Both the position numbers and the translations under genes were made by a program. A stretch of 41,232 nucleotides of DNA. Source: Candidatus Omnitrophota bacterium. Lineage in GTDB: Bacteria > Omnitrophota > Gorgyraeia > Gygaellales > Profunditerraquicolaceae. Under the pieces are notes generated by a model. It saw only the letters and a list, made by a program, of their open reading frames with translations, had not been told where the DNA came from and ran no database searches. Where the stretch lies: assembly GCA_016867095.1 (NCBI GenBank), contig VGKK01000001.1, positions 1-41,232 on the forward strand, read 5' to 3'. Shown in pieces: positions 4,677 through 41,231 of this stretch (positions are counted from its first letter, which is position 1; the number at the start of each line of letters is the position of its first letter).

Positions 4677-4684
4677 AGTAATTT

Positions 4685-10440: not shown

Positions 10441-10610
10441 GCGAACGATTAGTTCACGATTTATGAACGCCTAATCGCCAACCAATCGCCACAATCGCCA
10501 AGTAACGACGCGTTTGGCGCGTTTATGGCGCCTTTGTGTCCGAAATGTCCGATATATGTCCGTTATAGCAAATCCCGCATTAATCGCGCAAATCACGCAC
10601 TAACCGGACA
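10441..10610. repeat. ladder of short words, each repeated 2-3 times at 9-11-bp phasing
   Basis: AATCGCCA occurs at 10473, 10484 and 10493. TGGCGC occurs at 10515 and 10526. TGTCCG occurs at 10537, 10546 and 10557. AATCNCGCA occurs at 10571, 10582 and 10591. CGGACA (reverse complement of TGTCCG) is at 10605. Confidence 0.7.
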
Positions 10611-11960
10611 CTTCCCAATGCCCGCCCTTATCAGGACCAATGCGTTTAATGACGTCTTTATTTTTTAACGCATCTAAATGCTTACGGACAGCTGACTCAT
10701 TTATTTTTAATCGATCTGCAAGCTCCTTCCTAGATATCGATGGATTCTGTCTAATTAAATCCAAGACGACTGCTTGCCTGGCAGTGATTTTCTGGCCACC
10801 TTTTCTGGCCACCTTTTCTGGCCACCTTCCTCTAATCCTTTTCCTTCTTCCCATCTTGGCCGATAAAAAACCACTTCAAAACCAGTTTTGAGCCGTTTGA
10901 ACTCAACTTTAACTCCGGCAGCAACACATTCATCGTGAATACGCTTGATGCCGCTGCCCCAGCGTTCGATGTCTTTGGATTTATACATTGTTTCAGCAAT
11001 TAAAGAATTGCGTAAAATTGATTTCTCGTGTCCGGTAAAGAAATCCTCCGGATTAACTTCCTTAGGAAAAAGTCCGGGATTGTAGATTTCGATACGATCT
11101 TTAAAGATAGCCACTTCGTTACCTTTGGGGTTCTCGAAATCCCGATGGCAGAGTGAATTTCCGATTGCTTCCGAAATCGCCCGCACAGGGATTTATGGAA
11201 TTTCTTTTCGGCGGCTTTCGCTTAAATCTGCGCGCCATCTTATATTTCCATTAACATAGACCTCTGTCTGCTGGCGCAAGCTAAAGAGATTTCCCTTAAA
11301 CGATTTGATATCCAGAAACGTCAGTTTGTCTGTCCCGGCAAATATCGCAGCCTGAACTTCCAGGGGATTGTCATCGCAAAACAAAACTTCTGCTGCGCGT
11401 AATAGATGATTGCCTTCCAAAAGGTGCAGTTTATGCAATGTCGTCTTTACGTCAATAAACTCAAAATCCACGCGTTTGGTCGTCTTTGCCTTACGCATAA
11501 ATTCCTTAACCGCTTCTTCGTTGACATCGGCAAGGGTCTTTTCGGATACTCCTTTATCCCAGAGGAACTTCCCCTTCTCCAATATCCGCTCTTCAAGCTT
11601 CTGCGGACTCATAGCTTTATCCGATTCTCCGACGCGTATATACGCCCGGCCATAGGCAAAGTAAGGGCCGTTATTTCCCTTGGCCTCTACAACAATACAA
11701 TCTTTCCCATCAATTTTACGCGCCTCTACTTTCGGATAAATCTTTGGCTCCGTATTATCCACCACCGCCTGGGTCACATCCTTTATCGTCATTCGCCCGA
11801 TAGTCACCCCCAAAACCTTGCCACTACGGTCATCAATGCCAAAATATACCTCTCCATGACCATGCTTATTAAGCATGGCGGCAATGGAGATCACCGCTTC
11901 TTTAAGCTCTGCGGTAGATTTCTTAAACTCAACAGTTTCGGATTCTTTATGAACCATCAA
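10600..11960 (-). pseudogene. AlbA_2 (Schlafen-like) / HATPase_c_4 / winged-HTH regulator, disrupted by an in-frame TAA and a repeat-induced frameshift
   Basis: Three consecutive ORF pieces cover it. 11193..11960 is the AlbA_2-like part (ESETVEFKKS...). 10755..11186 is the ATPase-like part (AISEAIGNSLCHRDF...), in the same frame and separated from the first piece only by TAA at 11193-11195. 10600..10854 is the wHTH part (LDLIRQNPSISRKELADRLKINESAVRKHLDALKNKDVIKRIG), in a different frame. The frame switch occurs inside the 13-bp x3 repeat. Confidence 0.7.
10788..10826. repeat. perfect tandem repeat, 13 bp x 3 (TTTTCTGGCCACC)
   Basis: Read directly: three identical units at 10788-10800, 10801-10813 and 10814-10826. 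Translated on the minus strand they give GGQKRWPEKVARK, the same 13-mer in all three phases. Confidence 0.95.
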
Positions 11961-19039: not shown

Positions 19040-19044
19040 ATTTT

Positions 19045-19119: not shown

Positions 19120-19120
19120 T

Positions 19121-22693: not shown

Positions 22694-23220
22694 CTTAACC
22701 TCAACCCCTCTTTCAACGCCTTCTGGTTAATCTCAACCAGGCCCTTTTTATCCGCGGGCGCCATCTCGAAAATAACCTTAAGCACAGTTTTTTCTTCCAC
22801 GATATTCTTTCGGGCGAAGTAACACCCCAGGGCGAGCATATTGGCTACCTTGATATTGCCTAATTTGATTGCCAGGTCAGTAAAGGGGTGGCTTAAAGTC
22901 TCCGTGTTTTTAGGCGGGAGTTTATCCACTAGAGAGCTATTGATAATTAAGAGGGTTTTATTCTTTACCCGCTCTTTAAATTTCTTCAGGGAGGGATTAT
23001 TCATGATGATCAAGCTGTCCGGCTGATTAATACGCGGCGAACCAATGCGGCGATCGGATATTATTACCATGCAATGCGCGGTTCCGCCGCGCACCTCTGC
23101 GCCATAAGCAGGCAGCCAGGTGACAAATTTACCTTCCTGCATCGCTGCTTCTGCGAGAACCTTGCCTAAAAGCATAATGCCCTGGCCGCCGGCTCCTGCT
23201 ATAATAATTTTTTCAATCAT
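22690..23220 (-). CDS. 2-oxoacid:ferredoxin oxidoreductase, gamma subunit
   Basis: 176 aa. IIAGAGGQGIMLLGKVLAEAA is typical of POR/VOR/KOR gamma subunits. Confidence 0.85.
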   Translation of the reverse strand: MIEKIIIAGAGGQGIMLLGKVLAEAAMQEGKFVTWLPAYGAEVRGGTAHCMVIISDRRIGSPRINQPDSLIIMNNPSLKKFKERVKNKTLLIINSSLVDKLPPKNTETLSHPFTDLAIKLGNIKVANMLALGCYFARKNIVEEKTVLKVIFEMAPADKKGLVEINQKALKEGLRLR

Positions 23221-23306
23221 ACAATTCTGTGTAATGTTAAATGTGTAATGTGTAACGCTGGTGTAACGGTTGCCACATTACACGTTACGCTTTAAACGTT
23301 ACACAA
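23221..23306. repeat. word-built imperfect hairpin (word GTGTAAYG) filling the beta-gamma spacer
   Basis: The left arm is GTGTAATGTTAAATGTGTAATGTGTAACGCTGGTGTAACGG. The right arm is CCACATTACACGTTACGCTTTAAACGTTACACAATT. One exact pair is GTGTAACG (23250-23257) with CGTTACAC (23297-23304). Confidence 0.8.
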
Positions 23307-24038
23307 TTATTTAATTCTGCCTAATGGGAACTCTTTGGCCATCACGTTATTAATCCAATCCAGCGCCTGCCTGGGAGGCATCGCCCAATAAGTCGGGCAA
23401 GGCGATAATATCTCCACCAAAGAGAACCCTACATGATCAATTTGATTCTGGAAGGCCTGCCTTATCGCCTTTTTGGTTTTCATCACTTCTTGGGGCGAAG
23501 ACAGCGCCGTCCTTTCAATATATTTTACGCCGGCAAGTAATGCCAGCATCTCGGAAATCTTTAAAGGATAGCCCTCTTCGGGCTTTCTTCCCTGCGGGGT
23601 GGTGGCGGTCTTTTGCCCCAGTAAAGTAGTAGGGGCCATCTGGCCGCCGGTCATACCGTAAACCGCGTTATTAATAAAAATGACGGTCAGGTTTTCGCCG
23701 CGGTTAGCGGCATGTATGGTCTCGTTGGTCCCGATAGCCGCTAAATCCCCGTCCCCCTGATAGGTAAAGACGATATTTTGCGGCCTGACTCTTTTTATCG
23801 CCGTAGCCACAGCCAGGGCCCGGCCGTGCGCCGCCTCAGAACAGTCAAAATCCCAATAATCATAGGCGATTACCGCGCAACCCACCGGAGCAACGGCAAT
23901 AACCTGCTCTCTGATATTTAATTCATCCACCACTTCCGCGATCAGCCTGTGGGCTATGCCGTGCCCGCAGCCCGCGCAGTAGTGCGTGGATATGTTACGT
24001 AGGGATTTAGAATGACTGAATACTTTACCCATAATCAA
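23307..24038 (-). CDS. 2-oxoacid:ferredoxin oxidoreductase, beta (TPP-binding) subunit
   Basis: 243 aa. Has CAGCGHG and the TPP motif GDGDLAAIGTNETIHAANRGENLTVIFINNAVYGMTGGQ. The likely true start is ATG at 24032. Confidence 0.9.
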   Translation of the reverse strand: MIMGKVFSHSKSLRNISTHYCAGCGHGIAHRLIAEVVDELNIREQVIAVAPVGCAVIAYDYWDFDCSEAAHGRALAVATAIKRVRPQNIVFTYQGDGDLAAIGTNETIHAANRGENLTVIFINNAVYGMTGGQMAPTTLLGQKTATTPQGRKPEEGYPLKISEMLALLAGVKYIERTALSSPQEVMKTKKAIRQAFQNQIDHVGFSLVEILSPCPTYWAMPPRQALDWINNVMAKEFPLGRIK

Positions 24039-24043
24039 TTTCC

Positions 24044-24180
24044 TAAATTACAATAAACAAATTACAAATCACAAACAATATACAATACCAAAATCACAAT
24101 GACCAAATGGTTCCATATGTAATTTTGGTCATTTGATATTTGGATTTGTTTGTAATTTGGAATTTGTGATTTGGGATTTA
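24044..24180. repeat. ACAA/TTGT heptamer-built long hairpin, empty copy (family core CAAAATCACAATGACCAAA)
   Basis: The left arm (24044-24107) is TAAATTACAATAAACAAATTACAAATCACAAACAATATACAATACCAAAATCACAATGACCAAA. The right arm (24124-24180) is TTTGGTCATTTGATATTTGGATTTGTTTGTAATTTGGAATTTGTGATTTGGGATTTA. On the minus strand a 12-codon mini-ORF (MTKITYGTIWSL*, 24094-24132) starts at the arm ATG. Confidence 0.85.
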
Positions 24181-24183
24181 ACA

Positions 24184-25242
24184 TTATAGTTTTTTTATCT
24201 TGCTTATTATTTCTTCCTCTGAGGGAATTCCGCCGCCGGAGCGGCCTAAAAATCCGACTTCTGCCTGGCCGTCAAGCGTTAACCTAACATCCTCCAGCAT
24301 CTGGCCATAAGACATCTCCGCCACTAAAAACTTTACGCGCCTGCGCGCTCGCGAATTGACGAGCCGAAAGGCATTTTCCGGAAACGGCCAGAGAGATATA
24401 GGACGAATTAACCCGACTTTCTTTGCCTTTTCTCTTAACCTTTCCACTGCTGCCCGGCAGATTCTCGCCATTGTCCCGTAAGCTACAATGATTACTTTGG
24501 CGTCGTCTAAAAACAGGCCCTCATAACGCTGCTCTCTTATTTTTATAGTTTTATATTTCTTTTGTAACAAAAGGTTGACCTTCTCTAAGTCGCCCTCTTT
24601 CATATAAAAAGATTTTACGATATTGGGCGTCCTACCTTTACAGCCGGTCAACGCCCACTTTTTATTCTGACGGGTGACGTGGTGACGTGGTGACGTGGTG
24701 ACGTGTAAAGGTTCCATCGTCTGCCCCAGCATCCCGTCGCCCAAAATAATTACGGGATTACGGTACTTATCCGCTAAATCAAAGGCCGCAGGCATAAAAT
24801 CATACGCCTCCTGCACAAAAGAAGGCGCCAAGACGATGCAATGATAATCTCCGTGGCCGCCGCTGCGCGTAGCCTGGAAATAATCGGATTGCGCCGGCCA
24901 GATATTGCCCAGGCCCGGCCCGCCCCGCATCACATCAACAATCACCGCCGGTAATTCCGCGCCTGCCATATAAGAGATGCCTTCCTGCTTCAGGCTGATA
25001 CCCGGGCTTGAAGACGAGGTCATCGCCCTTGCCCCGCAGGCCGCGGCGCCAAAGACCATGTTGATGGCGGCCAGCTCTGATTCTGCCTGGATAAACACCC
25101 CGCCTGCCTGCGGCATATGTCCGGCCATATAGGCGGGGATTTCATTCTGGGGAGTAATAGGGTAGCCGGCATAGAAACGGCAGCCTGCCTGGATCGCTCC
25201 CTCAGCCATTGCCTCGTTACCTGTCATTAATATACGTTTCAT
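24184..25242 (-). CDS. 2-oxoacid:ferredoxin oxidoreductase, alpha subunit
   Basis: 352 aa. MTGNEAMAEGAIQAGCRFYAGYPITPQNEI... is typical of KorA/VorB/PorA N-termini. Substrate not assignable. Confidence 0.9.
   Translation of the reverse strand: MKRILMTGNEAMAEGAIQAGCRFYAGYPITPQNEIPAYMAGHMPQAGGVFIQAESELAAINMVFGAAACGARAMTSSSSPGISLKQEGISYMAGAELPAVIVDVMRGGPGLGNIWPAQSDYFQATRSGGHGDYHCIVLAPSFVQEAYDFMPAAFDLADKYRNPVIILGDGMLGQTMEPLHVTTSPRHHVTRQNKKWALTGCKGRTPNIVKSFYMKEGDLEKVNLLLQKKYKTIKIREQRYEGLFLDDAKVIIVAYGTMARICRAAVERLREKAKKVGLIRPISLWPFPENAFRLVNSRARRRVKFLVAEMSYGQMLEDVRLTLDGQAEVGFLGRSGGGIPSEEEIISKIKKL
24673..24704. repeat. perfect tandem octamer array (GGTGACGT)x4 inside the alpha-subunit CDS
   Basis: Read directly. 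It encodes part of PLHVTTSPRHHVTRQ on the minus strand. Confidence 0.97.
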
Positions 25243-25248
25243 AACGTT

Positions 25249-25330
25249 GTCACCAAGTCACCATGTCACAAGGTCACCCGTTGTTCAATTTTCTGCATTG
25301 CTTTTAGGGGTGACGTAGTGACTTTGTGGC
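25249..25330. repeat. octamer-built hairpin (word GGTGAC) in the delta-alpha spacer; contains the alpha-subunit SD
   Basis: The left arm is GTCACCAA GTCACCAT GTCACAAG GTCACCCG (25249-25280). The right arm is GGGGTGAC GTAGTGAC TTTGTGGC (25307-25330). On the mRNA the last GGUGAC lies 6 nt before the alpha-subunit AUG (25242). Confidence 0.85.
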
Positions 25331-25340
25331 CTGATGCCCC

Positions 25341-25544
25341 TTATTTATACACTTCTACACAGCAATCCGGGCAGATAACCGCGCATAATGTGCAGCCCAA
25401 GCATTCGCCCGTATCTTTGAATTCTACGGCAGCCACTCCCCGTTTATTTAAACCTTTAGCCGCCTTGATGAGCCCTTTGGGGCAAAAGCTCACGCAAAGT
25501 AAGCAACCCTTGCATTTATCTTTATCTATGGTTATTTTAGCCAT
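25341..25544 (-). CDS. 2x[4Fe-4S] ferredoxin-type delta subunit of the oxidoreductase
   Basis: 67 aa. Has CKGCLLCVSFCP and CLGCTLCAVICP. Confidence 0.85.
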   Translation of the reverse strand: MAKITIDKDKCKGCLLCVSFCPKGLIKAAKGLNKRGVAAVEFKDTGECLGCTLCAVICPDCCVEVYK

Positions 25545-25548
25545 ATTA

Positions 25549-27405
25549 TTACCTCGTCAGCAACTTAATCTTATGCGCTATTGCCGCAGCCGTCAACCCA
25601 TATTTTTCCAGGAGGGCCTCTCTTTTTCCGTGCGCGATAAATTCGTCGGGCAGGCCTAATTTGATTGTCGGCCTGCCTATCGCCTCGCTCAGCGCGCTGC
25701 CAAATCCGCCTTCCACAATGCCCTCTTCCGCGGTAAAAATAACTTTTGTTTTTTCGGCCAAGCCCAAAAATAAATCTTTATCCAACGGCTTTACAAAACG
25801 CGCGTTAATCAAGGCGCCTCTTAGGCCTTCCTTAGCTAATAATTCTATCGCTTCTTGAGCCGGCCTTACCATAGAACCTATCGCGGCTATCGCAAAATCC
25901 TTCCCCTCGTTCAAAACTTCCGCCTTCCCAAGCTCAATTTTTGGTGACTTGGTGACTTGGTGACTTGGTGACTTATCTTTAGGATACCTGATAGCCACCG
26001 GCTTATCCAAACCTATGGCAAATTCTAACATCGCCTCCAATTCCTCCCCATCTTTAGGCGCCATAATCACTAAATTGGGGATGCTTCTTAAAAAAGCCAG
26101 GTCAAAAATTCCCTGATGCGTTACGCCATCCTCTCCGACTATGCCTGCCCGGTCAAGGCAAAAAATCACCGGCAGGCCCTGCAGGGCCGCCTCTTCCATA
26201 ATCTGGTCGTAAGCCCTCTGCAAAAAGGTGGAATATACCGCCACTACCGGCTTAAGGCCTATTTTTGCCAGGCCCGCGGCAAAGCATACCGCATGTTGTT
26301 CGGCAATGCCCACATCAAAAAATCTTTCCGGATAGGCATCGCGGAATTTATCCAGGCCTGTGCCTTCGGGCATGGCCGCGGTAACGGCAACAATCTTTTT
26401 ATCCTCCCGGGCCAAATCCACTAATTTCCGGCTAAAGACTTCGGTATAAGTGGGACTTTGTATCCCCTCTTTAGGCAAGGCCTGCCCGCTCTTTATATCA
26501 AAGCGTCCGGCGCCATGGAACCTGACCGGGTCGCTTTCCGCCGGAAGATAACCTTTGCCTTTCTTGGTGACCACATGCAGCAACCTCGGCCCTTTAATAT
26601 ACAAGATATTCTTTAGCGTCGGCACTAAAACATTTAAGTCATGGCCGTCAATAGGCCCGAAATAACGGAATCCCAATTCCTCAAAAAACATTCCCGGGAC
26701 AAACAATCCTTTTAAGCCCTCTTCAAATTTATTGGCGATTTTTATCAGGCGGCTCCCTTTAGGCAGGCGCGACTTGGCAAAACCCTCCAAAGACCCCTTA
26801 AAACGATTGTATATCGGTAAAGAGATGAGTTTATTCAGGTATGTGCTTAAAGCGCCGACATTGGGGGCGATACTCAATTCATTGGTATTTAAAATAACTA
26901 AAATATCTTTCTTGAGGTGGCCGGTATTATTCAGCCCCTCAAAACACAAACCCCCGCTTAAAGAGCCGTCGCCGATTACCGCCACTACTTTAAAATGCTG
27001 CCCCGCCCCCAGGCTGTCCCTGGCGCAGGCCAAACCCAAGGCCAAAGATACCGCAGTTGAGCTATGGCCAGTAGTAAAAGTATCGTAAGCCGACTCTGCG
27101 TAAGACGGGAATCCGCTCACGCCCTGATATTGACGAAGGCTGGAAAAATCCTTGTTTCGTCCGGTTAAAATTTTATGCGCGTAGGCCTGGTGGCCGACGT
27201 CAAAGATTATTTTATCTTCGGGGCAATTTAAACAATAATGCAGCGCCACAATCAGCTCCACCGCGCCCAGGCTTGAGGCGAGGTGCCCCCCCGAAGAAGA
27301 AACTACCTCAATCATCCGCTCTCTAATTTCAGCGGCTAATTGCGGCAGCTTTTCCAAGGAAAGTTTTTTTAAATCCTGGGGTGAATTAATCTGGTCTAAT
27401 ATCAT
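25549..27405 (-). CDS. dxs: 1-deoxy-D-xylulose-5-phosphate synthase
   Basis: 618 aa. Has GGHLASSLGAVELIVALH, DVGHQAYAHKILTGR, the TPP motif GDGSLSGGLCFEGLNN, and DVGIAEQHAV. Confidence 0.93.
   Translation of the reverse strand: MILDQINSPQDLKKLSLEKLPQLAAEIRERMIEVVSSSGGHLASSLGAVELIVALHYCLNCPEDKIIFDVGHQAYAHKILTGRNKDFSSLRQYQGVSGFPSYAESAYDTFTTGHSSTAVSLALGLACARDSLGAGQHFKVVAVIGDGSLSGGLCFEGLNNTGHLKKDILVILNTNELSIAPNVGALSTYLNKLISLPIYNRFKGSLEGFAKSRLPKGSRLIKIANKFEEGLKGLFVPGMFFEELGFRYFGPIDGHDLNVLVPTLKNILYIKGPRLLHVVTKKGKGYLPAESDPVRFHGAGRFDIKSGQALPKEGIQSPTYTEVFSRKLVDLAREDKKIVAVTAAMPEGTGLDKFRDAYPERFFDVGIAEQHAVCFAAGLAKIGLKPVVAVYSTFLQRAYDQIMEEAALQGLPVIFCLDRAGIVGEDGVTHQGIFDLAFLRSIPNLVIMAPKDGEELEAMLEFAIGLDKPVAIRYPKDKSPSHQVTKSPKIELGKAEVLNEGKDFAIAAIGSMVRPAQEAIELLAKEGLRGALINARFVKPLDKDLFLGLAEKTKVIFTAEEGIVEGGFGSALSEAIGRPTIKLGLPDEFIAHGKREALLEKYGLTAAAIAHKIKLLTR
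25943..25974. repeat. perfect tandem octamer array (GGTGACTT)x4 inside the dxs CDS
   Basis: Read directly. It encodes part of YPKDKSPSHQVTKSPKIELGK on the minus strand. Confidence 0.97.
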
Positions 27406-27656
27406 TAACTTTCGCCTTCGGCAGGCTCATCCTCAAACTTTTCTAAAGAAAATTTGGCGTCCTTCTTGGCCAACAATTCAACCTTACGCTGGGCCTCATT
27501 GAGGGCATGGGAACAGCCCTGGGCAAGCTTTATTCCTTCTTCGTATTTTTTCAGCGAATCCCCCAGGCTCAGCTTTCCGCCGGATAATTCTTCCACGATT
27601 TTTTGTAAGCGCCTGATATCCTCTTCAAAGGACTGTTTATCTTTTGTCATCTTCAA
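27405..27656 (-). CDS. xseB: exodeoxyribonuclease VII small subunit
   Basis: 83 aa. FEEDIRRLQKIVEELSGGKLSLGDSLKKYEEGIKLAQGC is the typical XseB pattern. Confidence 0.85.
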   Translation of the reverse strand: MKMTKDKQSFEEDIRRLQKIVEELSGGKLSLGDSLKKYEEGIKLAQGCSHALNEAQRKVELLAKKDAKFSLEKFEDEPAEGES

Positions 27657-28853: not shown

Positions 28854-30749
28854 CTATTCTTTTTTTACTTGCGTGGCAGCTGTAGTATCAGACGTTTTCT
28901 CTGCGGGCTGAGCCGCATCCGTCACTTGGGCTGGGGCCTGCGGCGCAACTGCTTCCGGCTCCCTGGGTTTTGGCTTTAAGATAATCAAATTAACCGAATA
29001 AGGGGCCAGGGTCAATATCTCTTCATATAAATCAGCGGCCGGATGGATTTCTTTTTCTTCTGCGGGAATAAATTTGCAATTACTGCTGCAGGAGGAATCT
29101 ACGAGGTACCTCTGGTAGAGGTAATTCTCCTTAAGGTTCTTAATGCCTAATTTTAAATTACGGCTGGCGGACTTGAATTTTGCCGCCCTATCGCTTAATT
29201 CCTTGGCTTTTTTCAATACGGCCCTTGTTTTACCCGTCAGTGCTAAACGGGAAGGCTCTAATTGGCCCTGCATAATCCTGTCCAGCCTGTCCGTCTTAAT
29301 CAAGTTTAATAACGCCTTTCTCTCCGCGCTCTTTAGGCTGCCGAGGACCCTGGATAAATAACCTATTACGGCCTCCGGGTCAATATAATTATAAATTAAT
29401 AGCGCGACGCTGTCTTTGCCCTGGGTGGCGATGACCCCGCAAAACTCATCCTTAAATTTATCCGAAGACAAAAACAGGTTATCCCCCAAAAGCCCCAGCA
29501 TCCGGAAAGTATTGTAACTGGCCTTGGGCCCGCCCTTGTATTCGGAAGATTCAGAATCAAACCAAAAGATGCCTGTATTTCTGATTACGCCTTCCTTGTT
29601 GTTCTGGAAATCTTCCAGGGAAAAATAAAGCTGGTAACTAAGCCCGGCCTCGCGCATATTCCTTAAGCGGGCGGGAATATAGCTGGCCGCGATAAAAGAC
29701 TCCTCTTTTCTTTCCGGCAAGACATTTATGCCCCGGTCATAATTCCATTCATCAACAATAAGGGGGGTATTCTTGTCAAAACGAAAATAGGTCAGCCAAT
29801 CCCGGACCAGGCTGACCGAAAACTTATTATAAATAGTGGCCTGCTTCTCTGCCTGGGGGTCGCTGGAAAAGCCGTGCCAGCTGATAAAGTCTAACGGCAG
29901 CCGGTTTCTGTGGCAAAATTGAATGAGTTCGTAAATCAGGCTTCTCTCCGGGGTAACAATGGTATTGCCGTCAAAATTCTGGAACCACCAGCTGGTGCTC
30001 GGGCCGCCCAGGGGAATATGTATTTTCGTCTCTGCCTCTAATTCCTTTACTGCCTCGGCGATTGCGCGGTATAAATTAAGGTATTCCTGTTTCCGGCCTA
30101 AAAAGAAATCCTCTAAATCCGGCGCGCTCCAGACTTCATACCAGATATTATACTTTTTGTCGCAGCTTAAATGCCGGATATGGCGCTTGATTAGATCTTT
30201 AAACGCCTTTAAATTCTGGGGCAGGCTTCTTTTATCCAGCACCTTGCCCAAGCCCGCAGGCGTGCCGAATATATCCAGGATGACTGTCCCGCCCGCCTCA
30301 TTAATATTGCTGATTATCTTTTCATAATTGCCTAATAAGCTGTTCTGTAAATTTTTATTTTTGGTGAACTGGCTAATCTCCCAGAAATTATACTGGATAC
30401 GGTAGAGCCCTTTAAAACCGACGGCCTTTTGCCACTCATCAATGGCTGCGCTTGCCGCTATCTGCTGCGGCCAGATGCTGTCGCGATGGAACCCCCGGCC
30501 GCTTAAATCAATATTCGGCCGGAAAATATTCGGCAAGGGGACGGTCGCGGAGGCAATGTCTAAAGTAAATTCTAATTCATCGGATTGCTGGCCGTAAGAA
30601 GGATAAATTCCAATACACAATACACAAATTACAAACAATACCAAAATCACAATACCAAAACTACGTATAAATTCTCCTGTTTTGGTCATTGTAATTTTGA
30701 AATTGGAATTTGTTTGTGATTTGTAATTTGTAATTTGGAAATTAGACAT
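28854..30749 (-). CDS. secreted clan GH-A-like (beta/alpha)8 glycoside-hydrolase-fold protein; start uncertain (30749 or 30689; the ORF track maximum is 30800)
   Basis: Has a hydrophobic signal/anchor FGIVILVLFVICVLCIGIY. NIWYEVWSAPDLEDFF occupies the place of the WE(V/I)WNEP acid/base motif, and PLIVDEWNYD is a nucleophile-like motif. The tail is Pro/Ala/Gln-rich. ATG 30749 overlaps the ymdB stop (TATAATGTCTAA). Confidence 0.55.
   Translation of the reverse strand: MSNFQITNYKSQTNSNFKITMTKTGEFIRSFGIVILVLFVICVLCIGIYPSYGQQSDELEFTLDIASATVPLPNIFRPNIDLSGRGFHRDSIWPQQIAASAAIDEWQKAVGFKGLYRIQYNFWEISQFTKNKNLQNSLLGNYEKIISNINEAGGTVILDIFGTPAGLGKVLDKRSLPQNLKAFKDLIKRHIRHLSCDKKYNIWYEVWSAPDLEDFFLGRKQEYLNLYRAIAEAVKELEAETKIHIPLGGPSTSWWFQNFDGNTIVTPERSLIYELIQFCHRNRLPLDFISWHGFSSDPQAEKQATIYNKFSVSLVRDWLTYFRFDKNTPLIVDEWNYDRGINVLPERKEESFIAASYIPARLRNMREAGLSYQLYFSLEDFQNNKEGVIRNTGIFWFDSESSEYKGGPKASYNTFRMLGLLGDNLFLSSDKFKDEFCGVIATQGKDSVALLIYNYIDPEAVIGYLSRVLGSLKSAERKALLNLIKTDRLDRIMQGQLEPSRLALTGKTRAVLKKAKELSDRAAKFKSASRNLKLGIKNLKENYLYQRYLVDSSCSSNCKFIPAEEKEIHPAADLYEEILTLAPYSVNLIILKPKPREPEAVAPQAPAQVTDAAQPAEKTSDTTAATQVKKE
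30608..30741. repeat. ACAA/TTGT heptamer-built long hairpin, copy overlapping the start of the GH-like gene
   Basis: The plus-strand left arm (30608-30660) is TTCCAATACACAATACACAAATTACAAACAATACCAAAATCACAATACCAAAA. The right arm (30680-30741) is TTTTGGTCATTGTAATTTTGAAATTGGAATTTGTTTGTGATTTGTAATTTGTAATTTGGAAA. The 16-nt block CAAAATTACAATGACC is identical to the copy at 36264-36279. Confidence 0.85.
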
Positions 30750-34132: not shown

Positions 34133-34141
34133 TAATTTAAT

Positions 34142-36746: not shown

Positions 36747-39700
36747 CTATTTTATCACCGCCGGTTCGCCGGGTAGAACATCTATCTTTTGCAGCGCAGC
36801 CGCAAATTCTGCGCTCGGTTTCTGCTCCAGCATCACCAGGATTTCTTTCAACGATTCATCGCTGCCGGTGCAGCGTTCCTCTTCCATGCGCATAATATCC
36901 GCAATACAGCCGAGCACCTTATCTATTTCCTTATCCGCGCAGCCGCCTGCCACGCAACCCTGCAAATACTCCTTTATCCTCTGCGGTGACGGGGTGATAT
37001 TCGCCGCCAGCATCCGCTCTATCTCCTGCCATTCTTTGGCTAATTCGGGATTGACTTCGCGCTGGAAAGTTAGAGGGCTAGAGGGCTGGATGGTACGCAA
37101 ACCGCCCATCGGCTGAATAGCAATGGGCATATTGCCGCTGAAATCGATACCGCCCTTGCCGGTATCTTTTTGTTCTGTTACTATAAAAGTATCACTTTTG
37201 CTATCTTGCCCTAATGACCCCCGGCTATCGAAATTGTTCGGTTTAATTCGGTTAAGTTCAGGATCTTTCGTGCCAGATCCGAACCTGATTGCTAAATCTC
37301 CAGATACATTAATGTACGCATCATAGCCAAGCTGGCGTAAACCCTCTGCCATTTTATCCGCATATGATGCAAACCGCTGACCCTGCATACGTGCACGGAC
37401 AGCTTTTAATTCCGCCGCAAAAGGGGTGTTTAATACAATGCTGGCGCCGTTCTCCCATAACTCAGTCCCTATGATGTCATACTGCACGTGCTCATCTATA
37501 GTAAACCCCAACTCTACAATTTCCAGCGATTGGCCTGTTTTTCTATAAATTACATATTCATGCCCGCCCACTGTATTATCATTTGTAGATAAAAACAGGT
37601 ATCCGTTTTCTTTTAAATGAACTTTCAACCTCTCTAACGCTAATCTTCTCTGCTCTGGCGGATAGTGCATAAGGACATTGCTAACCCTGATCAAGTCCGC
37701 CTGTTCTGCCAATCTTAAGCCGAACAAATCGCCTTTTACCGGCTCAATACCCGCCTCCGGCGCATAATGCTCTACCGGATGGAAAAATATGTAATTCATG
37801 TCCATATCAAGCCGACCTTCGCCGCCGCCTTTTTGCCACAATTCATCCCTTACCGCGTTTATTCTCCGGATCTGTTGAGGCGTTAAATCATCAAGGCCTT
37901 TCGATGCTTTATCATTGACGACGCCATAGAGGTTCCCATCGCCATCATAAAGCGCATAAAAACCTACGCTGAAATCGTCAAATGAATCATTGTTTATCCA
38001 TACCGCATACTCCGGCATTTGGTTATCTACGCCTATCATGCGGACATCAAGCCCGTTAGCCGCTAGCGTCTGGCGCAACCTGGCCGTAGTAATCCATGGT
38101 TCGTCCGCAGTATTAAAACCGGGTCCGATATCCACAACGGTTAATTTATCCGTCCTGCCTTTAAGTAATTCACCGATTCTGAGATTAGCCTTATCCAACC
38201 TCTCTACTCCAGTAGCTTGACGGGTGATTTTGCCGCCGGTAGGCTCCGCCTCCCCGGTGCCGCCGGCTTGCGGCTGCTGGGCAGCGGGGTTATCTTTATT
38301 GGTCCATCCCCAGCGCGCAAAGGCGCCGGGGTTGCGCCTCGTATAATCCGCATAAGCTGCCAAAACCTCTTCTCCAGTGGTAGCGGTCCCTTCCTTGGCC
38401 AGCTGCTGGGCATACTCGGCTAAACCGGGGCGGTCGCCGTATTTAGACTGTAATATTTTCAGGATTTGGGCGGCGGTTAAAGCTTCTTTTGTTTTAGTAG
38501 CTGCTACCGGTTTCCCGTTTTTATTTATACAATCTTCCACCATAGCCGCATAATCGCTCAAAAGCTGTTGGAAGGCAGGATGGAGCCTAGGATTATCCAT
38601 TTTTGTCTGATATAGCTTGTTTAAATGCGGATAAAGCTGGGGCCAAATCTCAATAGCAGCAGTGTCTTTTCGCCTATCATAATCTCCCCGCCAGATAGCC
38701 TCAAAAGCCGCAACAGGAATGCCAAATTCCTTTGCCTTATCCCTAATATCCCCCTTAAACATCCTGTATATCGCCGCTAAACCTCGGTTTTTGCTTGGGT
38801 CTGAATCTTCTTTTATGTATTCTATCAGCGCCGCGTTTAGCAATTTTATATTCCGAATAAGTTGATAGACTCCCTGGGCAAGTCTTGTTGAGCCATAAAT
38901 AAGCTCTTGATTGTCTAAATGGAAGATTTCACCTGCATCAGCCGGATCGTAATAGGGAAGCAGCAATCCCAGATAATCAGTTCTTTCTTTAGTCTTAGGC
39001 GCTTGCCCGTTTACCGGCTTAACCACGCCGCCGCCTGAGATGAGAACGCTGGATTGTTTGCCCATAAGCGAGATCACATCCCTAGGATACCCTTTTTCAT
39101 AAAATCTGCTGGCAAGCAGGGCAAATTCAATGTATTTGGCTTCCTCCGTAAGATTGCCGGCAAAGGCTAACTGTAGCTCAATTTCATATCTGGCGCGGTC
39201 AAACATGTTTGTTTCGCAAAGATAATAGAATAAATCTGTTTTGACTCTTTCAGAAATGGTGGAAGGAAATAGTATTTCGTGTTCCAAGGCCTCCACGCCT
39301 TTTAATAAGGCCCCTTCTCTACGCCATTCAAGGCCATAAATAGGCGCGGCCAGGTATCTAAGGGCCTGCTCATTTTTATCGGGCTCCTGCGTATTCGGCC
39401 TGCTATAGAGATGCACCTTAAAACCGACAGCGGGGCCAATAGAGGCAGCCTCAAGCGCGCTAATCTCCTTAATCTGTTTTTCTAAAAATCTTTCGTTAAC
39501 CTCTGCGTTCCTTAAGCCGTTTTCTGCTTTAGCCTTAAAAAGTATAAGTGCTACTGCCGCATCTGATATTTGCCTATCCATAGCCTGAGATTGCGCTCTT
39601 ATCCGCAATATCAAGTCTGCATCGGCTCTTAAACCAGGCATTACCATCTCCCAATAGGTTTTAAATTCCTGGTCAGTAAAGAGCTCTTTCACAGCGGGCA

Positions 39701-41231
39701 GGCCGTGTTGGAATAGGCGCCAGGCGTTTGTGCCGCTGGCAATGCCTAAGCGCACCAGATCATCGCCTATCTGGTTTAAAGTAGCTCTGTCAATAATAAG
39801 GGCTTTCACAACAGGCAGGCCGTATCGGAATAGGTCCCAGGCATCTGCCCCGGCAGCCACACCCAGGCGCACCAGGTCATCGCCTATCTGGTTTAAAGTA
39901 GCTCTGTCAATAATAAGGGCTTTCACAGCGGGCAGGCCGTATTGGAATAGGAACCAGGCATTTGTGCCGCTGGCAATGCCTAAGCGCACCAGGTCAGGCC
40001 AATAGGTTTTAAATTCCTGGTCAGTAAAGAGCTTTTTCACAGCGGGCAGGCTTTGTTGGAATAGGAGCCAGGCATCTGCCCCGGCAGCCACATATAATTT
40101 CTTAAAAGGGATATACCCATAAATCGCAATTATGCCGACAAAGTCTCTATTTAGTTTTTGGATATCTATTCTCTGGGTTAAAAATTCTTCAGCCGCATCT
40201 TCTTCTTCAACCGTTCCTTTTAGCGAGCCCGCCTCCCCGGTGCCGCCGGCTTGCGCTTGGCGCTCGCGTTCCATCCTATCCTGGATATCGCGCTCCGGCA
40301 TCCCGCCGCCTTCAATCCAGTAATAACCGTCTTTTTTATAAACCGGCATAACTGCGCCGTTTAAAACTATATGTTCCTCGCCGGAGGTTAAAACCAACCG
40401 CGCGTTATCGTCTATTTCTCCGGCGCTCATCGGCTCTTTAGCATACTCGCCTCGTCTTAGGTCAAGCACGTGACTGATCAGAGCATCCTTTAATTGCTGG
40501 GCAGTATAAGTTGTTTCTGCGGATCCGCCTTTTATCCTATCCTCACCTAACATACCACTGCGACGCGCCGTCGTTTCCTCGTTGCCTTGCCTGCTTAATT
40601 GTGCCCATACATTTAGGAAATCTATCTCTTTATCAATTTCGGCTACCAGAAATGCCTTGATTTCTTCGCGCAGCACAGCGTTCGGATCAGCTTCATTGAG
40701 ATGGAATTGCGCTTTAAAAGCGCTTATTTGCCTGTTTTTTTCCGCCAGCACCGCATCATCGTTAACTTTTTTTAGAGAATTTTCCAGCGATGTGGACAGA
40801 TATGTCGCTATTCCTACTGCTTCTAATATCTGCTGACGCAAAAATTCATCTTCGGTTTTACTGTTACTCTGGAGGGATGCTTTGACCGTCTCTAGGATGC
40901 GTATTAAGTTTTGCGGATTATCTTCGCGTATCTGCCCCTGAGATCTCAATGAGCGTAAAGTGCCTCTTAAAAGACCTAAAAGAATATGTGTTCCGATAAA
41001 CTCACCTTTGAAATAATCGGCCATGCTGATGTTTTGACGCGGGCCTTTGTTGTGATAAAGCGCAAGGTCGGATCTTTCTTTTATGTATTTTTTATTTGCG
41101 GCTACGGTAGCAAAAGTTAAATAGAAATCATCTAGGCGCAGGCCAAAATTATCGGTGGGACAAGCCATAGGGACATCCGCGGTTATCCCTGTAGCGGTAG
41201 TAAAACTGGCGACCTCAGGAGAAGTTCCCAT
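36747..41231 (-). CDS. giant multidomain protein, C-terminal 1494 aa (5' end at or beyond the window edge)
   Basis: The reading frame is open to the window edge. The first in-window codon happens to be ATG, but no upstream context is visible. Modules, N to C: helical regions; four 39-aa tandem repeats; a class I SAM-methyltransferase-like fold (LTVVDIGPG ... MIGVDN ... ADLIRVSNVLMHY ... LKENGYLFLS, about 37590-38150); and a C-terminal ~135-aa module beginning KGGIDFSGNMPIAIQPMGG and ending Cys-rich (LQGCVAGGCADKEIDKVLGCIADIMRMEEERC). Confidence 0.8.
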   Translation of the reverse strand: MGTSPEVASFTTATGITADVPMACPTDNFGLRLDDFYLTFATVAANKKYIKERSDLALYHNKGPRQNISMADYFKGEFIGTHILLGLLRGTLRSLRSQGQIREDNPQNLIRILETVKASLQSNSKTEDEFLRQQILEAVGIATYLSTSLENSLKKVNDDAVLAEKNRQISAFKAQFHLNEADPNAVLREEIKAFLVAEIDKEIDFLNVWAQLSRQGNEETTARRSGMLGEDRIKGGSAETTYTAQQLKDALISHVLDLRRGEYAKEPMSAGEIDDNARLVLTSGEEHIVLNGAVMPVYKKDGYYWIEGGGMPERDIQDRMERERQAQAGGTGEAGSLKGTVEEEDAAEEFLTQRIDIQKLNRDFVGIIAIYGYIPFKKLYVAAGADAWLLFQQSLPAVKKLFTDQEFKTYWPDLVRLGIASGTNAWFLFQYGLPAVKALIIDRATLNQIGDDLVRLGVAAGADAWDLFRYGLPVVKALIIDRATLNQIGDDLVRLGIASGTNAWRLFQHGLPAVKELFTDQEFKTYWEMVMPGLRADADLILRIRAQSQAMDRQISDAAVALILFKAKAENGLRNAEVNERFLEKQIKEISALEAASIGPAVGFKVHLYSRPNTQEPDKNEQALRYLAAPIYGLEWRREGALLKGVEALEHEILFPSTISERVKTDLFYYLCETNMFDRARYEIELQLAFAGNLTEEAKYIEFALLASRFYEKGYPRDVISLMGKQSSVLISGGGVVKPVNGQAPKTKERTDYLGLLLPYYDPADAGEIFHLDNQELIYGSTRLAQGVYQLIRNIKLLNAALIEYIKEDSDPSKNRGLAAIYRMFKGDIRDKAKEFGIPVAAFEAIWRGDYDRRKDTAAIEIWPQLYPHLNKLYQTKMDNPRLHPAFQQLLSDYAAMVEDCINKNGKPVAATKTKEALTAAQILKILQSKYGDRPGLAEYAQQLAKEGTATTGEEVLAAYADYTRRNPGAFARWGWTNKDNPAAQQPQAGGTGEAEPTGGKITRQATGVERLDKANLRIGELLKGRTDKLTVVDIGPGFNTADEPWITTARLRQTLAANGLDVRMIGVDNQMPEYAVWINNDSFDDFSVGFYALYDGDGNLYGVVNDKASKGLDDLTPQQIRRINAVRDELWQKGGGEGRLDMDMNYIFFHPVEHYAPEAGIEPVKGDLFGLRLAEQADLIRVSNVLMHYPPEQRRLALERLKVHLKENGYLFLSTNDNTVGGHEYVIYRKTGQSLEIVELGFTIDEHVQYDIIGTELWENGASIVLNTPFAAELKAVRARMQGQRFASYADKMAEGLRQLGYDAYINVSGDLAIRFGSGTKDPELNRIKPNNFDSRGSLGQDSKSDTFIVTEQKDTGKGGIDFSGNMPIAIQPMGGLRTIQPSSPLTFQREVNPELAKEWQEIERMLAANITPSPQRIKEYLQGCVAGGCADKEIDKVLGCIADIMRMEEERCTGSDESLKEILVMLEQKPSAEFAAALQKIDVLPGEPAVIK
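39634..40095. repeat. intragenic 117-bp (39-aa) tandem repeats with mosaic near-identical modules
   Basis: CCAGGC anchors lie at 39720, 39837, 39954 and 40068 (period 117, 117, 114). Head modules 39720-39757 and 39954-39991 differ at 1 nt. Tail modules 39758-39836 and 39875-39953 differ at ~5 nt. The outer tails 39651-39717 and 39999-40065 differ at 3 nt. Confidence 0.9.

Follow-up and report, generated by a model that had tools for sequence, protein, structure and literature searches.

Heptamer and octamer tandem arrays encode protein linkers of Dxs and VorB in a clade of Candidatus Omnitrophota

Introduction

How can perfect tandem repeats with a unit of eight nucleotides reside inside essential genes? 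This question is raised by a 41,232-nt stretch of Candidatus Omnitrophota DNA (contig VGKK01000001.1; hereafter the window), in which octamer arrays lie within dxs and within vorB, a gene for a korA-like alpha subunit of a 2-oxoacid:ferredoxin oxidoreductase. A previous interpretation made from the DNA letters (the sequence-only reading) proposed that the two arrays and a hairpin in the spacer between the genes reflect long-range RNA pairing around the Shine-Dalgarno (SD) sequence of vorB or a repeat-copying process inside coding DNA. Here, we compared the arrays with orthologous loci (compared loci and contigs bear L-numbers) and weighed these and other explanations.

Results

The features of the locus are listed in Table 1. 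Both arrays were located within minus-strand ORFs, and the two perfect 32-bp octamer arrays had the coordinates and units given in the sequence-only reading. In the mRNA sense, the dxs array reads (AAGUCACC)x4.2 and encodes the peptide KSPSHQVTKSPK at about residues 477-488 of Dxs, in the linker preceding domain III. The vorB array reads (ACGUCACC)x4 followed by a partial fifth unit and encodes HVTTSPRHHVTRQ (residues 180-192), where the linker that joins POR_N domain I to PFOR_II begins; both peptides are those previously proposed. These arrays were the only perfect runs with at least 14 matches at lag 7 or 8 in the 41-kb window, and their runs of 25 and 26 matches far exceeded the maximum of 12 observed in 200 dinucleotide shuffles. 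The window contained 20 copies of the word GGTGAC, compared with an expectation of 5.7, and 12 of these copies fell within 24673-25974.

Table 1 Features of the dxs-vorB locus and of a 13-nt array in the window.
Feature	Position	Strand	Remarks
13-nt array	10788-10828		In linker, currently out of frame
vorB/korA-like alpha subunit, 2-oxoacid:ferredoxin oxidoreductase, 352 aa	24184..25242	(-)	Pfam POR_N + PFOR_II; NCBI name VorB; hosts second array
vorB/korA-like octamer array	24668..24705	(-)	TRF: 4.9 copies; (GGTGACGT)x4 = 24673-24704
vorB start codon AUG	25240..25242	(-)	N-terminus MKRILMTGNEA agrees with orthologue N-termini
Hairpin 3' arm (mRNA sense) GGGUGACCUUGUGACAUGGUGACUUGGUGAC	25249..25279	(-)	Four degenerate GGUGAC units
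Hairpin loop	25280..25307	(-)	Contains small internal 4-bp stem
Hairpin 5' arm (mRNA sense) CAUCAGGCCACAAAGUCACUACGUCACCC	25308..25336	(-)	Same sense as CDS arrays; 10-38 pairs with 67-95 of the 116-nt RNA
2x[4Fe-4S] ferredoxin (fdx, delta subunit), 67 aa	25341..25544	(-)	Between dxs and vorB
dxs, 1-deoxy-D-xylulose-5-phosphate synthase, 618 aa	25549..27405	(-)	Hosts first array
dxs octamer array	25941..25974	(-)	TRF: 4.2 copies, 100% matches; (GGTGACTT)x4 = 25943-25974

The JGI gene call places the vorB start at M12 instead. Two contigs from the JGI (L001 and L002), independently assembled from two samples, were 99.94-99.97% identical to the window with zero indels, and neither the arrays nor the spacer hairpin differed from those of the window; the dxs array sequence was the same in L001 and L002, and the vorB array sequence was the same in L002. 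The agreement in array length between these independent metagenome assemblies rules out an assembly artefact. No copy-number polymorphism of either array was detected across the three assemblies.

The alignment with E. coli DXS (2o1s) was ungapped across the array-encoded Dxs loop, confirming the statement in the sequence-only reading that the array replaced this loop without lengthening it. In the AF2 model of Dxs, residues 474-494 formed a coil with pLDDT <50 at 482-484. In VorB, homology ends at the array: neither the Pfam POR_N match nor PDB homology extended past residue about 183-185, and residues 181-217 of the AF2 model were coil, with pLDDT dropping from 61 to 34. These results support the conclusion that the arrays occupy native linkers of Dxs and VorB at native length.

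The same two linkers were found to be encoded by 7- or 8-nt tandem arrays, with differing words, in many Candidatus Omnitrophota orthologues. Among 120 Dxs and 120 VorB orthologues (71-81% identity), repeat-type peptides such as IPNPKSQIPNPK, LPITDYRLPITE, and IKNQKSKIKNYK occurred in the same loops. Perfect arrays included (AGGTCACC)x4 in dxs of L003, (AAATCCC)x4.6 in both genes of L004, (AAGTCAA)x4.3 in L006, (CCGTTTGC)x4.6 and (CCGAACA)x4.7 in L043, (CAGAAGA)x4.9 in L024, and (CGGTCGC)x4 in L203. Lag-7/8 periodicity above the 99th percentile of control windows was a property of the VorB loop in 21 of the 45 Omnitrophota loci and of the Dxs loop in 10 of 37, and it was seen in none of 27 loci of other phyla. 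Linker arrays were absent from the more distant Omnitrophota and other phyla compared, and the arrayless lineages had ordinary loops at the same sites.

Alignment of the orthologues showed that native length was kept in the array-bearing Omnitrophota relatives. Units of 7 and 8 bp were interchangeable at the same site, and the arrays measured about 30-37 nt, or about 4-5 units, regardless of the word. Good CDS arrays were concentrated in dxs and vorB among the about 12 genes per locus, and every orthologue and all three assemblies were in frame. In addition, an array of the window's word was present in another essential gene, pyrD, on a metagenome contig of 43% G+C (L084). The arrays thus constitute a class of linker-encoding 7/8-nt arrays of one Candidatus Omnitrophota clade with clade-wide positional conservation, of which the pair in the window are the local members.

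The dxs arrays of the window, (AAGTCACC)x4, and of its closest relative L003 are each perfect, and their units differ at one position, identically in all four units. The 4-fold degenerate sites of these two sequences were 51% identical, compared with 28% for random sequence. Stepwise drift of the word was observed in L022, L024, and L029. Furthermore, a 6-mer was common to the dxs and vorB arrays in 6 of 11 loci, compared with 17 of 110 pairs formed between loci (P~0.002 by permutation). The arrays therefore evolve in concert, and arrays of one genome share words beyond chance; the all-unit substitution and the word sharing support the previous suggestion of a nucleotide-level repeat-copying process inside coding DNA.

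The GTCACC word in vorB persisted to 67% Dxs identity (window, L203, L204, L205, L038, and L036), and the units of the window and L003 differed at 1 of 8 positions against about 4 expected neutrally (rough P~0.04). These values hint that the word itself is under some nucleotide- or peptide-level constraint, something that would not be expected from a purely neutral cycle. Addition of one unit to the 13-nt array in Table 1 fuses HATPase_c_4 and wHTH ORFs, an array that indicates that slippage does occur in the genome of the window. Because the three assemblies are identical, ongoing slippage at the dxs and vorB arrays is something that we infer rather than observe.

The fdx-vorB spacer hairpin had a folding energy of -36.8 kcal/mol (z = -4.35), and none of 200 shuffles folded as well. 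As the sequence-only reading claimed, it is built from the array word: its arms and the vorB array draw on one word family, the 3' arm is complementary to both CDS arrays, and the reverse complement of this arm is identical at 29 of 31 positions to the vorB array of the relative L205. The claim that an SD-like GGUGAC lies in the arm was also verified; it is the last 3'-arm unit (25249-25254), 6 nt upstream of the vorB AUG, and is partly base-paired at the foot of the hairpin. The ferredoxin stop codon is located about 7 nt upstream of the first stem pair, and the hairpin spans nearly the whole spacer, bringing the stop and start codons near each other. Stem-loops with degenerate 7/8-mer arms, including this one, occupy most operon spacers of the window. 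The fdx-vorB hairpin is missing from the closest relatives, L003, L203, and L205 (fdx and vorB abut in L003 and L203), yet dxs and/or vorB of all three still contain arrays. Hence, the hairpin is dispensable. It is probably a lineage-specific derivative of the word family, consisting of direct and inverted copies of a vorB-type array. Locally, it probably only sequesters part of a weak GGUGA Shine-Dalgarno and brings the fdx stop near the vorB start, and ribosomes terminating on fdx would open the hairpin, which suggests a role in translational coupling with vorB.

Discussion

Here, we propose that the arrays are probably clade-wide, self-homogenising linker arrays, kept by slippage and gene conversion, with reading frame, linker length, and hydrophilicity acting as filters. 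Over evolutionary time, arrays would have taken over the DNA of the Dxs linker before domain III and of the VorB linker after domain I. They would be translated straight through, with the 8-nt unit read in all three frames by turns, and the peptide is therefore non-periodic. A point mutation would arise in a single unit, and replication slippage and/or short-tract gene conversion would spread or remove it; this cycle would make the units identical within an array and let the word drift between lineages, namely, concerted evolution. Selection would act only as a filter that keeps the frame and holds the linker near its native length. Because the frame of an essential gene must hold, only net three-unit or compensated changes would survive, and the sense strand must be A/C-rich because all three frames then yield hydrophilic, stop-free residues. 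Nearby arrays of one genome would also exchange sequence. Slippage and conversion thus seem to be the engine, with a selective filter beside it. As points against this explanation, the concentration of arrays in dxs and vorB could reflect an operon-specific function and not mere tolerance. The length of about four units is uniform whatever the word; a preference for about four units in the heptamers of Xanthomonas and Nostoc was credited to function (PMC4692102).

The arrays could instead be footprints of mobile hairpins, that is, stem-loops with tandem-repeat arms that insert into spacers and in-frame linkers, possibly mobilised with a 23S-IVS-protein (PF05635) gene, the single-arm arrays being remnants. 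This seems unlikely, even with several observations in its favour: whole in-frame hairpins occur in the VorB loop of L033, L012, and L023 (peptides such as VHSQEFIVGSKKLRTTNYELRTK), the arrays and fdx contain small nested GC palindromes, and hairpins at orthologous junctions appear and disappear. The window also contains three AT-rich hairpins that are nearly identical, with a PF05635 IVS-protein (IVP) gene in the loop of one of them, and inverted heptamer arrays flank an IVP homologue on an unrelated contig. However, the words differ at almost every site with no conserved element sequence, orthologous arrays alter stepwise in place, the loops have had nothing added to their native length, and the window yielded neither a transposase nor a reverse transcriptase.

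Regulation in cis by RNA, in which the dxs and vorB GUCACC arrays and the local 5' arm are rivals for the SD-bearing GGUGAC arm, so that vorB translation would depend on how the neighbouring coding regions are translated or folded, is improbable as well. The distances previously given (about 690 nt to the dxs array and about 545 nt to the vorB array) and the 16-nt perfect complementarity of the dxs array were correct. The bare duplex energies with the 3' arm were -47.0 kcal/mol for the dxs array, -46.5 kcal/mol for the vorB array, and -33.4 kcal/mol for the local arm, and L038 showed the same order (-38.5 vs -30.7); since the arm-array duplexes beat the local one in the window and L038, a facultative local interaction may exist, and this order also counts against the explanation that we propose. 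The partial pairing of the SD-like GGUGAC, the non-random word sharing within genomes, and a word common to hairpin and array in the window, L038, and L004 are also consistent with such competition. In contrast, a partition-function fold of the 1451-nt mRNA gave 16.0 expected base pairs between the SD arm and its local partner, 0.62 with the dxs array, and 0.02 with the vorB array, so the local hairpin is dominant, and local pairing is the stronger one in L004. Both arrays lie in translated ORFs, where ribosomes would unwind RNA structure. Moreover, the hairpinless relatives keep their arrays, the spacer hairpin of L204 has an unrelated word, and most of the 25 good CDS arrays (50 loci) lack any complementary sequence closer than about 7 kb. 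The idea that GUCACC acts by mimicking the 16S tail does not hold in general either, because unrelated words occupy the same sites in other genomes. Consequently, the arrays are probably not an RNA switch, and the three-way competition for the SD that was put forward as their reason to exist is not supported.

There is a small chance that the arrays form a binding platform, either through reiterated DNA or RNA sites recognised by a repeat-reading protein or through unstructured RNA that is rich in C and poor in G (e.g. for Rho loading), and mark domain boundaries or tune operon expression. The uniform length of about 4-5 units, the concentration of CDS arrays in dxs and vorB, the survival of the GTCACC word beyond the neutral expectation, and the persistence of array character where 4-fold sites are near saturation would fit this explanation. 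Nevertheless, no protein emerged as a candidate, 7- and 8-bp spacings swap at the same site, and a sequence-specific reader is inadequate because the word varies between sites of one genome and between genomes. Finally, selection for particular linker peptides with the nucleotide repeat as a by-product is very improbable: two of the differences between L203 and the GTCACC array leave the peptide VT.SP unaltered (GTC to GTT and TCA to TCG, both synonymous), and VT.SP.H.VT-like peptides recur among VorB relatives, but such selection cannot yield perfect nucleotide identity of units read in three frames, amino-acid-changing substitutions separate every unit of the window from that of L003, and other lineages have unrelated peptides, or, where arrayless, ordinary loops, at the same place.

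The linker arrays can be compared with several known systems. STRR (short tandemly repeated repetitive) heptamers reportedly occur in heterocyst-forming cyanobacteria, including inside the RNase P RNA gene (the work of Mazel in 1990 and Vioque in 1997). The similarities are units of about 7 nt in short tandem arrays, genome-specific word families, frequent inverted pairs and stem-loops in transcribed spacers, and the ability to reside within a functional gene where its structure permits. The present arrays differ in belonging to Omnitrophota and not cyanobacteria, in lying inside the CDSs of essential enzymes and being translated in three frames, and in holding the same linker positions across many lineages. 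To our knowledge, concerted evolution at orthologous sites has not been shown for STRR.

The G-rich heptamers GGGAATC and GGGGA(T/C)T of Xanthomonas and Nostoc (Rehm et al. 2015, PMC4692102) likewise prefer about four units, lie between co-oriented ORFs near start or stop codons, and are transcribed, some as inverted pairs (PMC4692102). Among the Omnitrophota words, AAATCCC is complementary to GGGATTT. In contrast, the arrays studied here lie inside CDSs, and G-quadruplexes cannot explain the class because GGTGAC, AAGTCAA, CCGAACA, and other words have no G-tracts of at least 3. Borg repeats (Schoelmerich et al. 2023, PMC9879509) are also perfect, fast-evolving nucleotide repeats with an A-enriched coding strand; they occur in spacers and ORFs, where they encode disordered or linker-like segments, and slippage was proposed as their mechanism (PMC9879509). 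Unlike the 7/8-nt units with aperiodic peptides in Omnitrophota, all Borg ORF repeat units are divisible by three and give amino-acid repeats, their repeat regions are at least 50 nt, compared with about 32 nt in the window arrays, and they originated independently and are rarely shared, whereas the Omnitrophota arrays are positionally conserved in cellular housekeeping genes (PMC9879509).

In contingency loci, similarly, a non-triplet tandem unit lies in an ORF, where adding or removing a single unit causes a frameshift, and the 13-nt array of the window behaves as such a locus. The hosts of the linker arrays are, however, essential metabolic enzymes and not surface, restriction-modification, or virulence genes, and all are in frame in the Omnitrophota orthologues and the three assemblies; turning dxs or vorB off would have no plausible benefit. 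As for the spacer hairpin, it resembles the SD-occluding intercistronic stem-loops of translational coupling in pairing part of the SD-like GGUGAC and keeping the stop and start codons close, and RNase III sites such as 23S rRNA intervening-sequence stems in that a window hairpin of the same architecture holds a PF05635 gene in its loop. It differs from both in its tandem-unit arms, which are undescribed for those systems, and in its lack of conservation in the closest relatives, and it is known here from its sequence and predicted fold. The linker arrays of this Omnitrophota clade represent a little-described way for repeat DNA to inhabit housekeeping genes.

Results

Octamer arrays in the dxs-vorB operon

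The contig, which the record names assign to a Candidatus Omnitrophota MAG, carries a minus-strand operon of xseA, xseB, dxs, a ferredoxin gene (fdx), a vorB/korA-like alpha subunit, a TPP-binding beta subunit, a gamma subunit and gltX. The sequence-only reading had described perfect four-unit octamer arrays inside dxs and vorB, and the lag-run test upheld this description. The head-to-tail units showed 100% (dxs array) and 96% (vorB array) matches, with 26 and 25 perfect lag-8 matches, respectively, whereas no run in 200 dinucleotide shuffles exceeded 12, and these were the only perfect lag-7/8 runs of at least 14 matches in the window. The GGTGAC hexamer occurred 20 times in the window, compared with 5.7 expected, and 12 of the 20 fell within the 1.3 kb at 24673-25974, the only part of the window where the GTCACC word forms an array or hairpin. 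This excess and the shuffle test ruled out a chance origin of the arrays. Two independently assembled JGI contigs from different samples (3300020222 and 3300020083) were 99.94-99.97% identical to the window with 0 indels; at the assembly level, the arrays and the hairpin between fdx and vorB were unchanged. Because both contigs match without array differences, the arrays are real, and the concordance of three assemblies without indels ruled out an artefact.

Positions and repeat words of the features described in the window, in loci of relatives and in metagenome contigs (L numbers, loci or contigs; P numbers, orthologue protein sequences)
Feature	Position	Strand	Repeat or remark
dxs	25549..27405	minus
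ferredoxin gene, 67 aa	25341..25544	minus
vorB/korA-like alpha subunit	24184..25242	minus
Array in dxs	25943-25974		(GGTGACTT)x4; mRNA sense (AAGUCACC)4; encodes KSPSHQVTKSPK
Array in vorB	24673-24704		(GGTGACGT)x4; mRNA sense (ACGUCACC)4; encodes HVTTSPRHHVTRQ
L003 loops			dxs (AGGTCACC)x4; vorB (ACGCAAT)x4.9
L004 loops			dxs (AAATCCC)x4.6; vorB (AAATCCC)x4.6
L006 loops			dxs imperfect (CCCGATT); vorB (AAGTCAA)x4.3
L043 loops			dxs (CCGTTTGC)x4.6; vorB (CCGAACA)x4.7
L024 loops			dxs not recovered; vorB (CAGAAGA)x4.9 + (TCCGTCA)x5.1 at second vorB site
L203 loops			dxs (CGGTCGC)x4; vorB degenerate GTCACC word
L204 loops			dxs (AGTCCCC)x4, one mismatch; vorB degenerate GTCACC word
Second vorB array site	L022 9985-10018; L024 9938-9973; L029 10048-10081
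Array in pyrD	L084 8017-8046		(AAGTCACC)x4, the dxs-array unit; 43% G+C metagenome contig
High-GC arrays, examples	L188 3610-3828; L171 7290-7372; L139 6744-6856
GC-rich palindromes	L004 about 4640-4760, L005, L043; P0056, P0102, P0163, P0235, L007		ferredoxin gene (L004, L005, L043); Dxs/VorB loops (others)
Spacer stem-loops	19038-19128, 23229-23297, 24044-24180, 30604-30744, 31600-31673, 34008-34134, 34650-34847
AT-rich hairpins	24044-24180; 30604-30744; 36216-36270 + 36644-36700
Hairpin with PF05635 gene	36216-36700
Flanked PF05635 homologue	L119 5300-5850
HATPase_c_4/wHTH ORFs	10755..11186 and 10600..10854	minus
13-nt array	10788-10828		(TTTTCTGGCCACC)x3.2
Short-repeat cluster	10470-10600
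117-nt tandem repeat	39686-40092
1494-aa ORF	36747..41231

Arrays in place of protein linkers

The array loop of Dxs aligned with E. coli DXS (2o1s) without a gap throughout, in agreement with the earlier statement that the loop keeps the E. coli length. In VorB, the match to POR_N in Pfam ended at about residue 183-185, as did homology with solved structures, and both restarted at about 238-248. AlphaFold models, computed from the orthologue alignments and of moderate overall quality, gave coil at VorB 181-217, where the pLDDT fell from 61 to 34, and at Dxs 474-494, where it was below 50 at 482-484 and flanked by blocks of 93. The peptides encoded by the units, which are 7 or 8 nt long, were aperiodic. 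The arrays thus occupy linkers and substitute for them at native length.

Occurrence of linker arrays in Omnitrophota

When 120 orthologues each of Dxs and VorB (71-81% identity) were aligned, the same two loops were repeat-type peptides in most sequences, such as IPNPKSQIPNPK, LPITDYRLPITE, ALSSKLQAPSSK, IKNQKSKIKNYK, EHRTPNTEHR and VTKSPSHHVTSQV. Tandem DNA with units of 7 or 8 nt, translated in all three frames, is the only possible source of such peptides, and the DNA of 50 Omnitrophota loci confirmed that the loops are array-encoded. When a lag-7/8 periodicity score was applied with the 99th percentile of same-gene control windows as the cut-off, the loop exceeded it in 21 of 45 Omnitrophota sequences for VorB and in 10 of 37 for Dxs, compared with 0 of 27 Dxs sequences from outside the phylum. 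An Omnitrophota sub-clade at 69-71% identity and lineages at 55-57% had loops that were ordinary and similar in length. The sequence-only reading had asked whether orthologues share the array-encoded loops; many Omnitrophota do, in both Dxs and VorB, at a length near the native one. Literature on Omnitrophota with tandem repeats, heptamers or stem-loops yielded nothing relevant within the incomplete coverage of the search.

Three related lineages also had a second array site in vorB, at residues ~291-302, with (CGTCATC)/(TCCGTCA)x5. The corresponding site in the window is ordinary sequence with no array.

The fdx-vorB spacer hairpin

The 98-nt spacer between fdx and vorB was predicted to form a stem-loop (MFE -36.8 kcal/mol, z = -4.35) with arms pairing blockwise, GUCAC with GUGAC. 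The placement of the SD-like GGUGAC of vorB within this hairpin was confirmed in a part-paired form: in the predicted fold, GGUG, four nt of the last GGUGAC, is paired at the hairpin base, with the AUG 6 nt downstream. The SDs of the other window genes are of the ordinary GGAGG type. The JGI vorB call begins at Met12 (341 aa), not Met1 (352 aa) (window 25210-25242; 6446 in the JGI contig L002), and the start prediction was probably misled by the hairpin and the weak SD. An intrinsic terminator was ruled out, as the hairpin is followed by AACGUUAUG and no U-run. No known RNA family was found, Rfam giving only two chance-level matches (E 0.6-0.7) in 22500-27500.

Among close relatives, the hairpins of orthologous operon junctions were variable in presence, length and word. 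fdx and vorB abut in L003 and L203, and the 31-nt spacer of L205 lacks the word; the hairpin is absent from these three loci and the arrays are kept in all of them. The spacer hairpin of L204 is built from an unrelated word. On the best-supported account, the spacer hairpin is a local and dispensable derivative, with an effect that is probably limited to vorB initiation and coupling.

Long-range pairing and SD competition

The sequence-only reading had proposed long-range RNA pairing as one possibility, in which the two arrays and the local arm could compete for the 3' arm of the hairpin, which bears the SD-like element (SD arm). The claimed complementarity is real and strong: as bare duplexes, the SD arm gave -47.0 kcal/mol with the dxs array and -46.5 kcal/mol with the vorB array, compared with -33.4 kcal/mol with its local partner, and the same ordering was obtained in L038, a further locus. 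In the in silico partition function of the 1451-nt dxs-fdx-vorB mRNA, the long-range pairing was barely populated, the SD arm having 16.0 expected pairs with its local partner versus 0.62 with the dxs array and 0.02 with the vorB array. A complement search covering 25 CDS arrays in loci of about 14 kb found, for most relatives' arrays, no complementary stretch within about 7 kb. Neither the pairing structure nor its partners were conserved in the orthologous loci, and neither this search nor the fold bore out long-range pairing as a general principle. Because of the ensemble fold, the hairpin-less relatives and the partnerless arrays, long-range pairing is not the reason for the arrays, the comparative data weighing more than the mRNA ensemble; it is at most a facultative local consequence. 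Mimicry of the anti-SD was likewise rejected as a general principle, since other genomes carry unrelated words at the same sites.

Concerted evolution and probable exchange between arrays

The window is most closely related to L003, at 81% amino-acid identity, and 4-fold degenerate sites of the two were 51% identical versus 28% for random sequence. Their dxs arrays are each internally perfect and are separated by a single substitution repeated in all four units, and the word changes stepwise at the same site across L022, L024 and L029. On these comparisons, the arrays are undergoing concerted evolution. Their homogeneity is a DNA-level property, because the substitutions alter amino acids and identical units use different frames. 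The words are A/C-rich on the sense strand and give hydrophilic, stop-free residues from all three frames, an output that would explain the orientation of the arrays in CDSs.

At least one 6-mer was common to the dxs and vorB arrays of the same genome in 6 of 11 loci, versus 17 of 110 pairs formed across loci (permutation P = 0.002, for loci that are phylogenetically non-independent), and the spacer hairpin carries the word of the neighbouring CDS array in the window, L038 and L004. The reverse complement of the window's SD arm matched the vorB array of L205 at 29/31 positions, including the odd unit GTCACAAG, compared with 27/31 and 27/30 for the arrays of the window itself. By a small margin, this suggests that the SD arm was derived from an ancestral vorB-type array; the three values are too close to fix whether copying ran from vorB array to hairpin arm or the reverse, or what its source was.

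Same words outside the operon

A metagenome-wide scan for GTCACCNN x3 matched at least 120 contigs. Among the matches listed (L083-L202), GTCACCNN octamer arrays were frequent in contigs of 58-73% G+C, often as inverted pairs (ACAAGGTG)n ... (CACCTTGT)n forming hairpin arms of up to 12 units, and no dxs or vorB orthologue occurred. ORF calls in these contigs were an unreliable guide to whether the arrays are coding. Some of them lie directly upstream of a Shine-Dalgarno sequence. The arrays are not restricted to the dxs-vorB operon, because pyrD (dihydroorotate dehydrogenase) carries one in the metagenome contig L084, encoding VTKSPSHQVTK directly after the NISCPN active-site motif.

GC-rich palindromes of ~21 nt were also seen in-frame inside arrays and the small ferredoxin. 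Examples are ACPAGR and LPVRQAG at the peptide level and TTCCTGCCCCGAGGGCAGGAA and GGCGGGATCCCGCC at the DNA level, and the palindromes recall mobile palindromic repeats of very small size.

Other repeats and hairpins in the window

Most spacers between co-oriented genes hold a stem-loop with degenerate 7/8-mer arms and a word particular to each (TGTGTAA, CCGGTGAA, TTGGTTA and others); in the one at 34650-34847, the loop encloses a GC-rich palindrome. Three AT-rich hairpins with near-common arms (AAATTACAAA.../...TTTGTAATTT, ending ATGACC/GGTCAT) look like a dispersed family. Two have no loop ORF and appear akin to the third, a hairpin with degenerate heptamer arms whose loop holds a PF05635 gene (23S rRNA IVS protein (IVP), Avd-like four-helix bundle). 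A 41%-identical PF05635 homologue is similarly flanked in an unrelated metagenome contig, which suggests that IVP genes travel in degenerate-heptamer hairpins.

The perfect 13-nt array lies in a linker, exactly where HATPase_c_4 and winged-HTH (wHTH) ORFs overlap in differing frames, and a gain of one unit or a loss of two would restore a canonical single HATPase_c_4-wHTH protein. This is a repeat-caused frameshift, marking a pseudogene or else a regulator subject to phase variation, and its state is direct evidence of whole-unit array change in this genome. A look-up of the 84-aa wHTH ORF for copy-number variants of the 13-mer returned no record. Past the stop codon of this minus-strand ORF, short repeats are densely clustered, namely (AATCGCCAA)x3 and its inverted partner, (TGTCCGAWATA)x3 and GCAAATCNCGCA x2. 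Elsewhere, a 117-nt tandem repeat of 3.5 copies (77% matches) is hosted by a 1494-aa ORF without a Pfam match that extends beyond the end of the window.

Discussion

Cyanobacterial STRR sequences are short arrays of tandem heptanucleotides that form dispersed families in heterocyst-forming hosts. They are the nearest described system. Here, units are 7 nt in the relatives and 8 nt in the window, degenerate 7/8-mer arms occur in many spacers of the 41 kb, and the host is Candidatus Omnitrophota and not a heterocyst-forming cyanobacterium. Next come the G-rich heptamers of Xanthomonas and Nostoc, which lie between genes with a preference for four units and have been attributed to G-quadruplexes (PMC4692102). 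The GGGNATC type is defined by at least four tracts of at least three G, whereas GGTGACKT has only GG and the sister words AAGTCAA, CCGAACA and CAGAAGA have no G3 tract on either strand; as such tracts are missing from GGTGAC and the majority of its sister words, a G-quadruplex explanation was ruled out. Borg repeats are also close, sharing perfect head-to-tail units, but their unit length in ORFs is always divisible by three (PMC9879509). The units here are 7 or 8 nt and give no amino-acid tandem repeats.

The fourth comparison is with contingency loci. The likeness is a non-triplet unit within a CDS, here 8 nt x4 in dxs and vorB. Their hosts are surface, restriction-modification or virulence genes, and Dxs is the entry enzyme of the MEP pathway; Dxs and the 2-oxoacid:ferredoxin oxidoreductase alpha subunit are not dispensable or switch-adaptive. 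Furthermore, no unit-number variants were seen among the window and the JGI contigs L001 and L002, and the recovered orthologues are all in frame. The present arrays miss a defining feature of each of these four systems. REP/MITE-like hairpins differ in that the words here vary from site to site without conserved dispersed copies, while the AT-rich hairpins of the window do resemble a family.

We propose that a lineage-specific propensity forms and homogenises short tandem arrays, with slippage and/or short-tract conversion as the engine of homogenisation. The arrays would thereby have taken over linker-coding DNA, as linkers may constrain only reading frame, length and hydrophilicity. Functional or mobile-element alternatives, taken jointly, have the smaller yet appreciable share of our belief, because four points stand against pure neutrality: the GTCACC word was long retained in vorB, the arrays are concentrated in dxs and vorB, their length is uniform at about four units, and the SD arm complements the arrays better than its local partner. 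Far less probable is a dedicated process, perhaps PF05635-linked, that writes and rewrites arrays by direct or inverted copying between spacer stem-loops and the linker-coding DNA of essential genes, with the resulting pairs acting as programmable RNA-RNA contacts that set operon processing and translation in Omnitrophota and perhaps in other lineages with GTCACCNN hairpins.

Non-triplet repeats in CDSs are usually taken as phase-variation switches or errors. In this uncultivated phylum, non-triplet arrays stably encode linkers of essential enzymes clade-wide, yet are continually homogenised. If the proposed propensity is true, the arrays would allow slippage and gene conversion to be measured against frame selection in a natural setting, and repeat DNA could replace ordinary coding sequence where a protein needs just a hydrophilic spacer. 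It would also be a warning for pipelines of annotation and assembly, in that such arrays are genuine, gene-start calls shift (as for the JGI vorB) and genes can split (as at the 13-nt array). The finding connects to the old question of what purpose is served by cyanobacterial repeats of the STRR type and by hairpins composed of such repeats.
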